A stretch of DNA of 64,000 nucleotides from an uncultured Planctomycetia bacterium (GTDB taxonomy: Bacteria; Omnitrophota; Gorgyraeia; Pluralincolimonadales; Pluralincolimonadaceae), in the NCBI GenBank assembly GCA_964650515.1, contig CAZYUB010000006.1, positions 13,858 to 77,857 on the forward strand, read 5' to 3'. Both the position numbers and the translations under genes were made by a program. Shown here one piece after another: positions 57,351 through 62,709 of the stretch. The notes beneath the pieces were generated by a model. That model saw only the letters and a program-made list of their open reading frames with translations. It was not told where the DNA came from and ran no database searches. Every line of letters starts with the position of its first letter. Position 1 is the first letter of the stretch.

Positions 57351-57427
57351 GGGCCCATAGCTCAGTTGGTTAGAGCAGCTGACTCATAATCAGCGGGTCA
57401 TAGGTTCAAGTCCTATTGGGCCCACCA
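57351..57427 (+). tRNA. tRNA with a CAT anticodon (elongator Met, or Ile2/lysidine type), with encoded CCA.
   Basis: Cloverleaf GGGCCCA/TGGGCCC acceptor stem, anticodon loop CTCATAA, TTCAAGT T-loop. G1:C72 excludes initiator tRNA. Confidence 0.8.
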
Positions 57428-57434
57428 AATTTCC

Positions 57435-57511
57435 GGGCGATTGGCTCAGTTGGTTAGAGCGCCACATTCACATTGTGGAGGTCAAAGGTTCGAATCCTTT
57501 ATCGCCCACCA
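57435..57511 (+). tRNA. tRNA-Val (anticodon CAC), with encoded CCA.
   Basis: GGGCGAT/ATCGCCC acceptor stem, anticodon loop TTCACAT, T-loop TTCGAAT. Confidence 0.8.
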
Positions 57512-58268: not shown

Positions 58269-58674
58269 ACGCCTCGTCATATATACGGACGGCGGTTCCC
58301 GCGGGAATCCCGGGCCGTCGGGCATAGGCGTCATCGTATGCGGCGAAGGCGGAGAGGCCGTAAAGAACGTATCGAAGTATATCGGCGAGACGACGAACAA
58401 CGTCGCGGAATATATGGCGCTGATATACGGCCTGCAGGAGGCCTTGATTTTAAGGGCCGATGAGGTTATAATCAACTCGGATTCGGAACTGCTTGTAAAG
58501 CAGCTGAAAAAGGAGTATAAGGTCAAGGATAAGGACCTGAAGGTGCTGAACGGCCAGGTCGAGCACCTGTTGTCGGGCTTCAGGAAATACGAGATAAACC
58601 ATATCGACCGTTCCCTTAACAAGGGAGCGGACAGGCTGGCCGATAAGGCGGTAGGCCAGGAGTCGCTCTTTTAG
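58243..58674 (+). CDS. rnhA: Ribonuclease HI.
   Basis: VIYTDGGSRGNPGPSGIGV, plus the DEDD catalytic residues. Confidence 0.85.
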   Translation: MRKKPMRHKRLVIYTDGGSRGNPGPSGIGVIVCGEGGEAVKNVSKYIGETTNNVAEYMALIYGLQEALILRADEVIINSDSELLVKQLKKEYKVKDKDLKVLNGQVEHLLSGFRKYEINHIDRSLNKGADRLADKAVGQESLF

Positions 58675-58684
58675 ATCACAGGAT

Positions 58685-59117
58685 TTGGGCAGGCCGGATG
58701 GTCGGTCCTGGCTGATTTGCTTCGGCTTCTTGCCAGAAGCAAATCAATACGCCTGGACAGGAAAGTCCGAGCTCCAAAGGACAGCGTAGCGGGTAACGCC
58801 CGTCCGTCGTAAGGCGAGGATAATCCCAAGGCTAGTGATAGCCGCAGGATCCCGATGCCGGACTTCTCCGAAGTCCTGGCTCGGGAGAGCCACAGTGACG
58901 AACAATCCCATGCGGGAGGCCTGACGGCCTTAACGCCGGGACGAAGTGAAACGCGGCAATCTCTACGCGGTGCAAGGCCAAATAGGCGCATCTCTTGGGG
59001 CTGTCCGTCCCAAGCCCGCAAGGGCGGATGCGCGGGTTGGCTGCTTGACCCCGGCGGTAACGCCGGGGCTAGATGGATGATCATCGAACACGAAACTCGG
59101 CTTATAGGCCTGCCCAA
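58685..59117 (+). ncRNA. rnpB: RNase P RNA (bacterial type A).
   Basis: P4 strands: GGAAAGTCCGAGCTCC (5') and ACGAAACTCGGCTTATAGG (3'). A P1 pairing GGGCAGGCC…GGCCTGCCC. About 430 nt. Confidence 0.7.
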
Positions 59118-59138
59118 AATAATTTTCAGGAGAAGGAA

Positions 59139-59510
59139 TTGGCTATAGAAAGCCGCGCCGGCATAAGGGTAAAGATAGACGCGACCATAATGGTCGAGAT
59201 CGATACGGGCATGAAGGACAAGGTCCGCATAATCCGCGAACCCCAGAAGGCCGTCGTCGTCGACATAAGCATCATCGGCCTCGGCGTGATATCGCCGATA
59301 TTCCTTCCGAAAGGCGCCATCCTCGTCATACAGCTTGATACTACGATCTTCGATACAGACAAACCCGCGAGGGTAATAGGCGAGGTCAGGTACTGCAGGC
59401 CTTCGAAGAACAAGGATTACAGGACCGGCGTGAAGTTCCTCGATATAGACAAGACCCTGCTCGCGAAGATAAAAGAGTATGTCGAGCAGCATAAGCACAA
59501 CGCGGTATGA
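59139..59510 (+). CDS. PilZ-domain c-di-GMP-binding protein.
   Basis: RxxxR-like start and DISIIGLGV (DxSxxG). RBS AGGAGAAGGA, then a TTG at 59139. The track ORF start at 59073 would lie inside rnpB. Confidence 0.6.
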   Translation: MAIESRAGIRVKIDATIMVEIDTGMKDKVRIIREPQKAVVVDISIIGLGVISPIFLPKGAILVIQLDTTIFDTDKPARVIGEVRYCRPSKNKDYRTGVKFLDIDKTLLAKIKEYVEQHKHNAV

Positions 59511-59535
59511 ACCTACGGGAGACGCGGCGCGGCAT

Positions 59536-60636
59536 ATGGACATAAAAGCGATATTCAAGTCGATGGTAGATACCGGGGCTTCCGACATCTTCTTCAAGGT
59601 GGGAAGCCCCGTTAATTTTCGGGTGGACGGGATGCTGGCTCCGCAGGGTTCCGAAGCCCTTACCGAAAAAGACGTCTCGAAGATGATCGACGAGGTCTTG
59701 TCCGCGGACCAGAAGAAAGCCTTTGAAAGGGACCGCGAGATAGATTTCGGCGTTAACTTCGAGGGGCTCGGGAGGTTCCGCGGCAGCATATTCCACCAGA
59801 ACGGATTGCCCGGCGCCGTCTTCAGGTTCATCAAGGGCAAGATAGAGGCGTTCGACCCGCTGAACCTGCCGTCGAAGGTGCTCAGCAAACTCGCGCTCGA
59901 GAAGAGGGGCCTCATACTAATTACGGGCGCGACCGGAAGCGGCAAGTCCACGACTATCGCGAGCATAATAGAATACATCAACCAGAACCTTCCGTCCCAT
60001 ATAGTCACTATCGAGGACCCGATAGAGTTCGTCTTCGAGGATAAGAAATCGCTCGTCGAACAGCGCGAACTCGGCCTCGATACGCCGTCTTACCTCGATG
60101 CGCTGAAACATGTCATGTACCAGAGCCCGGACGTTATATTCATCGGCAACATACGCGACATGGAGACGATGGCGGCCGCCATGACAGCCGCCGAAACGGG
60201 CCAGCTCGTCGTAAGCACGATACATTCCGTGAACGCTATACAGACCGTAGAGAGGATAGTGAATTTCTACCCGCCCCACCAGCATGAGGAGATACGCATG
60301 CAGCTCTCGCTGCTGCTGAAGGGCGTCATCTCGCAGAGGCTGATCCCCGTAAAGGAAGGCAAAGGCAGGATGCCCGCCTGCGAGGTCATGCTCAATACCC
60401 CCACGATCTCCGCCCTGATAAGGGAAGGCAAGACGAACGAGCTCCTGCAGTATATAGAGGAAGGCGGAATATTCGGCATGCAGACGTTCGACCAGTGCCT
60501 CGCCAAGCTTTGCCTCGACGGCCGCATATCAGTCGAAGAGGCTAAGCGATTCTGCGATTCCGTCGCGATACTCGACCTCGCCCTTAAGGGCATCAAACGC
60601 ACCGAACGCGGCACTCCATTCACCCCCAACCGCTAA
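59536..60636 (+). CDS. pilT: Twitching-motility ATPase PilT.
   Basis: MDIKAIFKSMVDTGASDIFFKVGSP… is PilT-like. Walker A GATGSGKST. An alternative upstream start is at 59479. Confidence 0.85.
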   Translation: MDIKAIFKSMVDTGASDIFFKVGSPVNFRVDGMLAPQGSEALTEKDVSKMIDEVLSADQKKAFERDREIDFGVNFEGLGRFRGSIFHQNGLPGAVFRFIKGKIEAFDPLNLPSKVLSKLALEKRGLILITGATGSGKSTTIASIIEYINQNLPSHIVTIEDPIEFVFEDKKSLVEQRELGLDTPSYLDALKHVMYQSPDVIFIGNIRDMETMAAAMTAAETGQLVVSTIHSVNAIQTVERIVNFYPPHQHEEIRMQLSLLLKGVISQRLIPVKEGKGRMPACEVMLNTPTISALIREGKTNELLQYIEEGGIFGMQTFDQCLAKLCLDGRISVEEAKRFCDSVAILDLALKGIKRTERGTPFTPNR

Positions 60637-60648
60637 TCTAGTAATCTA

Positions 60649-60737
60649 GGAGCCATCCTCCAGGGGGACACCCTCAGATATAATGAAGGACGGAGTCTGT
60701 CCAGTGTGTCCCCTCGGAGGATGGCTCCCTTTTTTTG
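60649..60737 (+). terminator. Large intrinsic terminator: a ~23-bp bulged stem with a structured loop, followed by TTTTTTT.
   Basis: GGAGCCATCCTCC…GGAGGATGGCTCC is a perfect 13-bp inverted repeat. The inner AGGGGGACAC/GTGTGTCCCCT arm extends the stem. A T7 run at 60730-36. Confidence 0.6.
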
Positions 60738-60763
60738 GCTCCCTTTTTTCCCTATTATTTCCC

Positions 60764-60792
60764 TTGACACAAGTGGAGGTGGGGTGTATACT
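60764..60792 (+). promoter_or_regulatory. Sigma70-like promoter TTGACA-17-TATACT for the mraZ (dcw) cluster.
   Basis: TTGACA at 60764-69 and TATACT at 60787-92. Confidence 0.5.
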
Positions 60793-60802
60793 TTGTAGCG
60801 TC

Positions 60803-60830
60803 AGGTGGAGTAAAGTGGTTTAAAGTGGAG
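60803..60830 (+). promoter_or_regulatory. Putative MraZ operator: three direct repeats (c)AGGTGGAG / AAAGTGGTT / AAAGTGGAG at exact 10-bp phasing.
   Basis: GTGG cores at 60805, 60815 and 60825. Additional GTGG(A/G) copies at 60773, 60779 and 60840. Confidence 0.45.
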
Positions 60831-60836
60831 AATATG

Positions 60837-60947
60837 GTTGTGGGTCCAAATTAGCCTTTGTCGGGGAGCCCTCGCAAGAGGGAAAGGCAAAGCAAAAAGG
60901 GTCCAGCCGGTCCTTATAAATTTTGGGCCCACAACCTTTTTGTTCTT
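60837..60947 (+). promoter_or_regulatory. Structured mraZ 5' leader: a long-range stem (GTTGTGGGTCCAAA … TTTTGGGCCCACAAC) followed by CTTTTTGTTCTT, a candidate attenuator or terminator.
   Basis: The inverted repeat encloses ~70 nt, which contains a CCCTC-GCAA-GAGGG GNRA hairpin. A T-rich tract lies 25 nt upstream of the mraZ RBS. Confidence 0.4.
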
Positions 60948-60972
60948 ATCTTCGCTATTGGGGGGATGATAG

Positions 60973-61419
60973 ATGTTTTACGGGGAATACGAACATACTA
61001 TCGACAGGAAGGGCAGGATCATCATACCCTCCAAGTTCCGCGAGGTCTTCAAGGAAAATTTCGTCGAAAAATTCTACGTGACGCGCGGCCTCGACAAGTG
61101 CCTCTTCGTTTTTACCGAGGAAGAATGGAAGCTCGCCGAACAGAAATTCAAAGGCATGTCTTTTACCAAGGCCGACTCGAGGAAGTTCAACCGCCTGTTC
61201 TTCTCGGGCGCCGTAGATGTCACATGCGACAAGCAGGGAAGGGTCCTGTTGCCGCAGTACCTGAAGGATTACGCCGGGATAAAACGTGACGTAATGATAG
61301 TCGGCGTCTCGAACAGGATGGAGATCTGGTCGAAGGAGGAGTGGAACAGGTACTACGATAACGCGGCGCCTTCGTTCGAGAAGACCGCGGAGAACCTATT
61401 GGAACTTGACAACACATAA
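60973..61419 (+). CDS. mraZ: Transcriptional regulator MraZ.
   Basis: MFYGEYEHTIDRKGRIIIPSKFRE… is MraZ, with duplicated DxxxR domains. Confidence 0.9.
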   Translation: MFYGEYEHTIDRKGRIIIPSKFREVFKENFVEKFYVTRGLDKCLFVFTEEEWKLAEQKFKGMSFTKADSRKFNRLFFSGAVDVTCDKQGRVLLPQYLKDYAGIKRDVMIVGVSNRMEIWSKEEWNRYYDNAAPSFEKTAENLLELDNT

Positions 61420-62305
61420 GCCCGTTCTTTTAAAAGAGGTTCTTGAGGCGCTTGAGCCTGCGCCGGGGAAGACGATAGTCGACTGCACGGTCGGCCTCGG
61501 TGGCCATGCCGAGGCGATACTAGCGGCGATATCACCCGGAGGGCGGCTGGTCGGAATCGACAGGGATGCTCAGGCGCTTGAGATAGCGAAGGAAAGATTA
61601 GGGAGGCCCGGGGAGAGGGTGGACCTGATCAAGGGAAGGTTTGACGAGCTCGACGCGATCTTTGAGAGGGCCGGGATAAAAGGGGCCGACGGTTTCCTGT
61701 TCGACCTCGGCGTATCCTCGATGCAGTTCGACGAGGCGGGCCGCGGGTTCAGTTTCCGCGCCGACGCGCCGCTCGATATGCGCATGGATACCGAGGCGGT
61801 AAAAGACGCCGCGGAGCTCATCAATACAACGAGCGAAGCGGAGCTCGACCGCATACTCGAGGAGTACGGCGAGGAGAGGTTCCACCGCAGGATCGCTTCG
61901 GCGATCGTAGAGGAGAGGAAGAAGGCCCGGATAGAGACGACCGGAAGGCTTGTCGATATAATCGTGCACGCGATGCCTTATAAGATGAGGCACGGCAGGG
62001 TGCACGCGGCGACAAGGAGCTTCCAGGCGTTCAGGATAGCGGTCAACGACGAGCTGGGCTCGCTCGACAGGGCGCTTGACCAGGCGATCGGGCTGCTGAA
62101 CACGGCGGGTGTCATATGCGTTATATCATACCACTCGCTGGAAGACAGGATAGTGAAGAACAAGTTCAGGGAAGCCAAGGCCCGGAAGATATTGGAATTG
62201 AAGAGCAAGAAGCCGGTGACGCCGACCGAGCAGGAGATCGGTGGTAATCCGCGGGCGCGCAGCGCGAAAATGCGCGCGGCTAAGGCGGCGCGAAGCGACG
62301 CCTAG
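61406..62305 (+). CDS. rsmH: 16S rRNA m4C1402 methyltransferase RsmH.
   Basis: HKPVLLKEVLEAL…DCTVGLGGH is RsmH. TTG start overlapping the mraZ 3' end. Confidence 0.9.
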   Translation: MTTHKPVLLKEVLEALEPAPGKTIVDCTVGLGGHAEAILAAISPGGRLVGIDRDAQALEIAKERLGRPGERVDLIKGRFDELDAIFERAGIKGADGFLFDLGVSSMQFDEAGRGFSFRADAPLDMRMDTEAVKDAAELINTTSEAELDRILEEYGEERFHRRIASAIVEERKKARIETTGRLVDIIVHAMPYKMRHGRVHAATRSFQAFRIAVNDELGSLDRALDQAIGLLNTAGVICVISYHSLEDRIVKNKFREAKARKILELKSKKPVTPTEQEIGGNPRARSAKMRAAKAARSDA

Positions 62306-62316
62306 ACAGGGGAGAG

Positions 62317-62709
62317 ATGAAGGTTTACAGGTTCCTTATAATGACGGTAGCAGCCACGGCGGTCGCGTTGGTCTATGTGACGCAGCAGACCTCGCTGATA
62401 CGCCTCAGTTATGACATAAAAGCCAAGGAGCAGGCCTACTCGGAGCTTCTTGACCGCAATAAGATACTGCTGTATAATGTAAGGCAGTTGGAATCCCCGG
62501 CGCGTCTCGAGAAGACACTCCTGGCAAAGAACGTAAAGATGGAGGTCCCCTCAAAAGAGCGCTTTATACTGTTGTCTTCGGCCCAGGGATACAGCGCCGC
62601 GGATAACGCCGTGAACGCAGGCGCGGTCGGGTTCCTCGGAAGGGTCCGGCAGACCGTAGCGGGCCTGTTCGCATTGGGGCCCGAAGCGCAGGCTAAACCT
62701 TTAAAATAA
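62317..62709 (+). CDS. ftsL: Cell division protein FtsL-like (small bitopic protein).
   Basis: A single N-terminal TM plus a coiled coil, positioned between rsmH and ftsI. Confidence 0.6.
   Translation: MKVYRFLIMTVAATAVALVYVTQQTSLIRLSYDIKAKEQAYSELLDRNKILLYNVRQLESPARLEKTLLAKNVKMEVPSKERFILLSSAQGYSAADNAVNAGAVGFLGRVRQTVAGLFALGPEAQAKPLK

Follow-up and report, generated by a model that had tools for sequence, protein, structure and literature searches.

The region described here is the entire intergenic control region of the dcw operon (cell-wall and division genes) of a member of Candidatus Omnitrophota. It is contained within a 64,000-nucleotide (nt) stretch of contig CAZYUB010000006.1, which is referred to below as the window and whose positions are used throughout. 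Two elements were found between the promoter and mraZ, the first gene of the operon: a set of phased repeats that has the features of an MraZ operator, and a structured leader RNA. The mraZ gene is on the plus strand at 60973–61419, with an ATG start codon at 60973, and encodes a protein of 148 amino acids belonging to PF02381. This protein is 100% identical to one NCBI Omnitrophota MraZ, and MraZ entries in the PDB match it at E = 3e-18. The next gene downstream, rsmH, starts at 61406 and overlaps the 3′ end of mraZ; it is followed by ftsL at 62317. For comparison, 80 Omnitrophota mraZ loci were retrieved and their upstream regions were read, which provided 78 distinct promoters. Individual loci are designated by handles such as L016. 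The 15 close relatives form alignment A1; identity of the leader core was counted over 21 distinct sequences, and tails were examined over 23 variants.

The −35 hexamer of the mraZ promoter, TTGACA, is found on the plus strand at 60764–60769. It does not vary among the 15 close relatives and occurs in essentially all of the 78 Omnitrophota promoters. The −10 hexamer, TATACT, appears at 60787–60792 (+) after a 17-nt spacer. The promoter, a near-consensus sigma-70 type, matches 11 of the 12 consensus positions and is the sole promoter-like site within 60000–61500; no second promoter before mraZ was matched in the scan of this interval, and there is no room for one. Because there is no other promoter before mraZ, every dcw transcript from the mraZ promoter must pass the leader. 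The transcription start is predicted at about 60797–60800 from the spacing alone. The Shine-Dalgarno sequence of mraZ, GGGGGGA, is at 60960–60966 (+), 7 nt upstream of the ATG.

Three direct repeats, or MraZ boxes, are located on the plus strand just downstream of the −10 hexamer. Box 1 (AGGTGGAG) is at 60803–60810, box 2 (AAAGTGGTT) at 60812–60820, and box 3 (AAAGTGGAG) at 60822–60830, with GTGG cores at 60805, 60815, and 60825, respectively. The cores have an exact period of 10 base pairs (bp), which corresponds to 6-nt spacers. The pattern GTGG-N6-GTGG-N6-GTGG occurs once in the 64 kilobases (kb) when both strands are scanned, and 0.14 chance matches to the triple-box pattern are expected in the window when up to one mismatch is allowed. 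Additional GTGG boxes are found in the spacer between the two promoter hexamers, within CAAGTGGAGGTGG (60770–60782, +), at 60773 and 60779. The first of these two is unchanged throughout alignment A1 and lies 32 bp, or about three helical turns, upstream of box 1. A GTGG is present within the spacer of 33 of the 78 Omnitrophota promoters, and MraZ may also bind the boxes at this position. A GTAG at 60795 was considered as an upstream fourth box and rejected, as it is not kept among relatives.

Phased boxes are a general feature of the mraZ promoters of this phylum. Each of the 78 distinct promoters matches 10–12 of the 12 consensus positions and is followed by two or more exact GTGG boxes spaced in 10-bp phase, with three such boxes in 40 of them. 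Across these promoters, 112 of the 143 successive GTGG spacings are exactly 10 bp. The consensus of 192 phased Omnitrophota boxes is AAAGTGG(A/T)G. Box identity among close relatives is 93%, compared with 58% at the third codon positions of mraZ. When the window MraZ was aligned to PDB entries 9qlr and 1n0e, both DXXXR motifs were seen to be retained. K13 and R15 are found in DRKGR, and R90, the equivalent of R86, in DKQGR.

Published MraZ operators contain three GTG(G/T) boxes with 6-nt spacers, and that of Mycoplasma genitalium is built from AAAGTG(T/G)-N3 units (PMC12957436). In the structure of M. genitalium MraZ on its four-box operator, obtained by cryo-electron microscopy, the box is read by K13, R15, and R86 (PMC12957436). 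The Bacillus subtilis motif, GTGG[A/T]G with 4-nt spacers, is needed for repression (bioRxiv 10.1101/2022.02.09.479790). The window boxes resemble the MraZ-binding repeats of Escherichia coli, B. subtilis, and Mycoplasma in that they are direct GTG(G/T) boxes with 6-nt spacers, positioned 3′ of the −10 hexamer and near the start of mraZ. They have the A-rich 5′ flank (AAAGTG) of the mollicute boxes and the [A/T]G 3′ flank of the Bacillus boxes. They differ from the known repeats in coming from a phylum new to the set, Omnitrophota, and in the extra boxes between the −35 and −10 hexamers.

By homology and conservation, the assignment of the triple box as a genuine MraZ operator is strongly supported. 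All of the sequence-level features of the known family of MraZ-binding repeats are present, and the operator would be a routine further member of that family. A first-pass annotation of the window had proposed the TTGACA-17-TATACT promoter, three repeats with a 10-bp period, and a resemblance to MraZ operators. The promoter and the repeats are present where it placed them, and the resemblance is borne out by the phased boxes of all 78 promoters, the published operators, and the retention of K13, R15, and R90. Its list of repeats was correct for the three boxes downstream of the promoter, but the GTGG boxes at 60773 and 60779 had been overlooked.

In most Omnitrophota the last box adjoins the Shine-Dalgarno sequence. 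At loci L017–L080 (for example L030, L064, and L072), the median distance between the end of the last MraZ box (AAAGTGGAGG) and the ATG is 12 nt, and operator DNA and the mraZ Shine-Dalgarno sequence therefore coincide in most members of the phylum. Box 3 abuts or supplies the mraZ ribosome binding site in relatives without the leader. In the window, by contrast, a structured leader of about 115 nt is found between the two.

The leader is predicted to fold as a three-way junction of about 100 nt whose long closing helix, P1, surrounds the hairpins P2 and P3 (all coordinates on the plus strand). The 5′ arm of P1 (GGUUGUGGGUCCAAA, 60836–60850) forms 15 bp with the 3′ arm (the UUUUGGGCCCACAACC region, 60922–60936), and compensatory changes are seen at three of these pairs. 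P2 (60854–60893) consists of an outer stem, a GGGGAG/AAA internal loop or bulge, and an inner stem, CCCUC/GAGGG, that is capped by a GCAA loop at 60874–60877. The first 17 nt of P2 (GCCUUUGUCGGGGAGCC, 60854–60870) constitute a core that is identical in 21 of 21 distinct sequences. The predicted P3 hairpin is at 60898–60915. A U-rich tail, UUUUUGUUCUU (TTTTTGTTCTT), occupies 60937–60947 directly 3′ of P1. The distance from P1 is 24 nt to the Shine-Dalgarno sequence and 36 nt to the ATG. P1 is the dominant feature of both the minimum-energy and centroid folds. The 117-nt element has a folding energy of −48.3 kcal/mol (z = −3.7; 1 of 200 shuffled sequences folds equally well), and the 15 bp of P1 in isolation contribute −25.4 kcal/mol.

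The fold was evaluated for covariation. P1 and the inner stem of P2 were recovered using RNAalifold, with six pairs changed on both sides. In the alignment fitted to a covariance model, 96.8% of cells pair, compared with 35–60% when the 3′ partners are slid by 1–3 columns, and 28 cells contain double changes, compared with 7.7 ± 2.8 in shuffled alignments. The switches observed in P1 are AU/GC/UA, UA/CG, and CG/AU/UA, and two pairs of the inner P2 stem covary. For the outer P2 stem the registers GCCUUU/AAAGGC (with a 9-nt bulge) and CUUUGUC/GGCAAAG (with an internal loop) fit equally well, and the columns are invariant. The P3 hairpin can be formed in all variants through register shifts and not through column-wise compensation. 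In the divergent variant L016, the arms of P1 are wholly different in sequence and still pair over at least 11 bp; the fold has z = −4.1, and UUUUU follows directly. A kink-turn-like reading of the P2 loop was tried and fails at the A·G position.

Conservation within the leader is uneven. The 17-nt core has a mean pairwise identity of 1.00, compared with 0.58 at the third and 0.95 at the second codon positions of mraZ, and L016 retains its first 13 nt. Among close relatives, identity is 81–88% in the arms of P1 and 29–56% in the junctions and in the spacer that precedes the Shine-Dalgarno sequence. Judged by this comparison of sequences, the leader is a genuine RNA structure under selection. 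The first-pass annotation had described a terminator-like long-range stem before the mraZ ribosome binding site, and this stem corresponds to the 15-bp P1 helix. Covariation in related genomes had been named there as a check, and the stem is indeed kept with compensatory changes, including in L016. The stem has no simple loop; the two enclosed hairpins and the 17-nt core had been missed. It had likewise gone unrecognized that the leader, correctly placed before mraZ, is a clade-specific insertion that is absent from most of the phylum, and that it has an analogue studied by experiment, UpsM, located upstream of mraZ in Rhodobacteraceae (PMC5089854).

The roughly 115 additional nucleotides that separate box 3 from the ribosome binding site are found only in L001–L014, whose MraZ proteins are at least 78% identical to that of the window, and in a divergent version in L016. 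Twelve loci were obtained by scanning public metagenomes for the core pattern, and in 12 of 12 the order is promoter, boxes, element, and mraZ. In 578 kb (the window and the loci), a covariance model made from 20 distinct sequences identified mraZ-leader copies only, with L016 as a weak match at 24.7 bits. The element is present as a single copy in the window and is always positioned between the boxes and mraZ. It is absent from L093, L094, and L096 (76–78% MraZ identity) and from L099 (81%). Since L099 has no insert at 81% MraZ identity, the leader was gained or lost recently within the clade. The upstream neighbor of mraZ in L099 (Logan SRR22388277) is the same as in the window, the pilT-like gene, which belongs to the T2SSE family (PF00437).

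Several observations were made on the corresponding interval in other loci. In L015 and L093 the sequence from box 3 to the ATG is GUGGAGGAAG(U/C)AUUCCAC, in which box 3 is able to pair with the downstream UCCAC. An ancestral mini-hairpin of box 3 and UCCAC may have been the source of the P1 arms (GUGGAUUCC/GGAAUCCAC). The 5′ arm of P1 may also be derived from a duplicated box. As a phased fourth MraZ box, however, this arm (GGTTGTGG) was rejected; it is out of phase and its spacing is variable, since most variants place it 15 bp from box 3 and the distance in L005 and L006 is 17 bp. In L094 and L095 (76% MraZ identity) an open reading frame of 61 amino acids, at 1014–1199 and with no Pfam hit on record, lies between the MraZ boxes and mraZ and represents another type of insertion at the position of the leader. 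The long leaders of L053, L071, and L075 are unrelated and have no stem followed by a U tract. That of L053, about 190 nt upstream of mraZ and after the boxes, contains an internally repeated ATCCAACT..GCGCC unit and several GC-rich hairpins with no U tract.

Our preferred explanation for the locus has two layers, an MraZ operator and a structured leader RNA that terminates transcription in part, and a probability of roughly 0.55 is assigned to it. MraZ, the first product of the operon, would bind the boxes as an oligomer through its two DXXXR motifs and repress its own promoter, which is how MraZ is known to work, as judged here by homology. The boxes, with the consensus given above, would occupy roughly positions +5 to +33 of the transcript and share one face of the DNA helix. 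The leader would then act as a leaky intrinsic terminator. A fraction of the transcripts would end near 60940–60948 as an RNA of about 145–150 nt, and the remainder would be read through into mraZ-rsmH-ftsL. The invariant core would probably serve as the recognition site for a factor, either protein or RNA, that tunes termination or acts on the short RNA.

The properties of P1 and its tail are consistent with partial termination. The helix resembles canonical Rho-independent terminators in being stable, ended by G/C pairs, and followed at once by a U-rich tail, which is the stable stem and immediate tail expected of an intrinsic terminator. The tail of the window has a score of −5.36 on a d'Aubenton-Carafa-type scale, a terminator-grade value within the top 0.01% of the 15-mers in the window. 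In 23 of 23 variants P1 runs directly into a U-rich tail, with scores of −3.0 to −5.4; the terminator of the pilT-like gene upstream of mraZ has a score of −3.9. The tail sequences are 56% identical among the variants, though the U-rich composition is kept, and conservation of composition but not of sequence fits the prediction for a terminator tail.

A number of points weigh against this explanation. Canonical intrinsic terminators have short loops, usually of 3–10 nt. The arms of P1 are 71 nt apart, with two hairpins between them, and P1 was not called in a consensus terminator scan, in which only the weak inner P3 hairpin was identified. Most variants have interruptions in the U tract (UUUAAUUUC, UUAUAGUUU), which could just as well serve as a pyrimidine-rich standby site for the ribosome, or as an S1 site, immediately 5′ of the Shine-Dalgarno sequence. 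No conserved antiterminator was found using constrained RNAalifold with either arm of P1 blocked, where the only contact was a 4-bp GUGG/CCAC pairing. Because there is no conserved alternative fold, regulated read-through would need a trans-acting factor. The covariation comes from a clade of little depth (the effective sequence number in the covariance model is 1.2), and for the outer P2 stem and P3 the support consists of folding energy and conservation. Finally, L015, L093, and L099 are close relatives without the leader, and it is thus dispensable, an accessory layer.

No leader peptide was found. Small open reading frames in the leader (60838–60969 and 60801–60932) were rejected, given the frequent 1–2-nt indels in the alignments and a core that is conserved at all three codon positions. 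Sequestration of the Shine-Dalgarno sequence by the 3′ arm of P1 is unsupported, as this pairing, when checked by eye, is not conserved among the variants.

A precedent for the proposed arrangement exists in Rhodobacter sphaeroides, where the 268-nt 5′ untranslated region of mraZ contains a Rho-independent terminator that gives rise to the abundant small RNA UpsM, and about 1 in 100 transcripts is read through (PMC5089854). The UpsM arrangement was described as exclusive to Rhodobacteraceae (PMC5089854), and it is further regulated by the small RNA StsR and by RNase E (PMC8266604). Both systems have a single promoter, a long structured mraZ 5′ untranslated region, a stem followed by a U tract, and no separate mraZ promoter. 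Each is restricted to one lineage, and in each the dcw genes depend, or would depend, on read-through. No sequence or structural kinship is apparent, no direct comparison having been made with the UpsM sequence or a model of it; as the two phyla are distant, analogy is assumed. The leader of the window is shorter, with a 5′ untranslated region of about 175 nt compared with 268 nt and a predicted short RNA of about 150 nt compared with 206 nt. Its putative terminator helix encloses an entire folded domain, whereas the UpsM terminator is a separate 3′ hairpin. Moreover, the MraZ boxes are inside the transcribed leader, unlike in UpsM. The leader would be UpsM-like in its logic, analogous and not homologous.

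The 71-nt branched insert, atypical of terminators, and the failure to find an antiterminator may be accommodated by a post-transcriptional role, which we regard as possible but somewhat unlikely. The leader would then be a structural RNA that causes no termination and acts on the stability, processing, or translation of the mRNA, whether as a protein-binding site, as a CsrA-like or ribosomal-protein-like autoregulatory site, or as an element processed by RNase III or RNase E. The U-rich tract, located 12–25 nt upstream of the Shine-Dalgarno sequence, would be the standby or S1 site mentioned above. The identity of the core, which exceeds that of the second codon positions of mraZ, suggests sequence-specific recognition over the mere formation of a stem. 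However, a GC-containing helix followed by U3–5 is found in every variant, L016 included, and this is a specific signature of intrinsic termination. A stabilizing structure would be expected at the extreme 5′ end, and the leader fold begins about 40 nt downstream of it. No candidate binding protein was identified.

A more specific form of the attenuator explanation, in which the leader responds to a signal, is rather doubtful. Here a cellular factor (protein, small RNA, or metabolite) would dock at the core (GCCUUUGUCGGGGAGCC) and set the level of read-through into the division and cell-wall operon, and the short RNA might itself act in trans. If terminated, this RNA would carry the GGAG-rich box sequences.

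It is quite improbable that the leader is a riboswitch-like sensor, in which a ligand or ion bound at the junction or internal loop would stabilize P1 as the terminator stem and couple the dcw operon to a metabolite. The three-way junction closed by P1, the invariant internal loop, the GNRA loops found on most P2 hairpins, and the direct fusion of P1 to the U tract are all suggestive of such a sensor, and the authors of the UpsM study raised a riboswitch for the Rhodobacter leader (PMC5089854), which counts in its favor. The junction segments J1/2, J2/3, and J3/1 are nevertheless the least conserved parts of the fold (43–77% identity), unlike those of typical aptamers, and the P2 loop is not GNRA in five variants. 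The stability of P1 (15 bp, −25 kcal/mol) makes dependence on a ligand hard to picture, and no competing fold appears upon blocking either arm. The combination of a conserved junction aptamer and a mutually exclusive expression platform was not found in the leader. No Rfam riboswitch family is matched even at E = 10, and the distribution of the leader is very narrow, with loss in close relatives.

A decaying mobile or repeat element, similar to a miniature inverted-repeat transposable element and landed without function between operator and mraZ, is suggested by the 15-bp inverted termini and by a patchy presence among close relatives that keep intact promoters and operators when the element is absent, but this origin is very improbable as the present-day explanation and was rejected, since the element is a single copy everywhere examined (a second copy was absent from the 64-kb window, from about 100 loci, and from metagenome hits outside the mraZ leader), its arms vary by compensatory substitution, no target-site duplication is evident, and a core that is 100% conserved against 58% at synonymous sites points to purifying selection.

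The leader was also compared with catalogued RNA families. When the intervals 60400–61200 (801 nt) and 60795–60975 (181 nt) were searched against Rfam 15 using cmscan at E up to 10, the leader matched no family. The matches that were returned are attributable to chance, and comprise microRNA models placed on the hairpin that terminates the pilT-like gene, together with HgcE, whose 13.9 bits compare with a gathering score of 50. The mraW RNA motif, RF01746, is a conserved structured RNA that Actinobacteria have in the 5′ region of their mraZ/mraW (rsmH) operon, and the leader of the window is likewise a structured RNA 5′ of the mraZ/rsmH operon. It was rejected as a member of this family, to which it has no match at E up to 10 and from which it differs in phylum and fold. 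By inspection, resemblances to an RNA G-quadruplex and to helix 44 of 16S rRNA, the RsmH substrate, are loose only.

Upstream of the mraZ promoter is a gene for a pilT-like ATPase that ends at 60636 and is followed by a long terminator hairpin of its own (60649–60728), with 26-nt arms and a T run. Small tandem duplications are present in this terminator region (60634–60749). The sequence TAATCTAG is present twice across the stop codon of the pilT-like gene (60634–60649), and TGGCTCCCTTTTTT is present twice at 60722–60749, where the 3′ half of the terminator hairpin and the T run are duplicated. The nearest relative, L001, differs from the window in the same region. Farther upstream, a bacterial RNase P RNA of class A (RF00010, 177.6 bits) is encoded at 58686–59120 (+), between an RNase H-like gene and a PilZ-like open reading frame. 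The minus-strand reading frame listed at 58671–60008 is spurious, since the RNase P RNA gene lies within this interval. An adjacent pair of tRNA genes is found at 57351–57424 and 57435–57508 (+), with Rfam tRNA scores of 75.5 and 73.3 bits, respectively; the start of a listed open reading frame, at 57441, falls within the second tRNA gene.

Omnitrophota is an uncultivated phylum whose members are often ultra-small or host-associated. The operator extends the MraZ box rule to this phylum, which is helpful for annotation and unsurprising. The leader is the more valuable part of the finding, as it is a strongly selected RNA structure at the sole entry point to the division and cell-wall operon. 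It is an uncatalogued and narrowly distributed RNA element for which a role as an attenuator or as the source of a short RNA is plausible and has precedent. The element is short enough for in vitro tests even though the organism is uncultivated. If the leader terminates transcription, a leaky terminator before mraZ, possibly with a regulatory small RNA, would have evolved at least twice, and the leader would provide a rare instance of a folded domain enclosed within a terminator helix. If it were in addition a signal-responsive attenuator, it would constitute a checkpoint on cell division that acts at the RNA level and evolved independently, and the UpsM principle would then have a second case.

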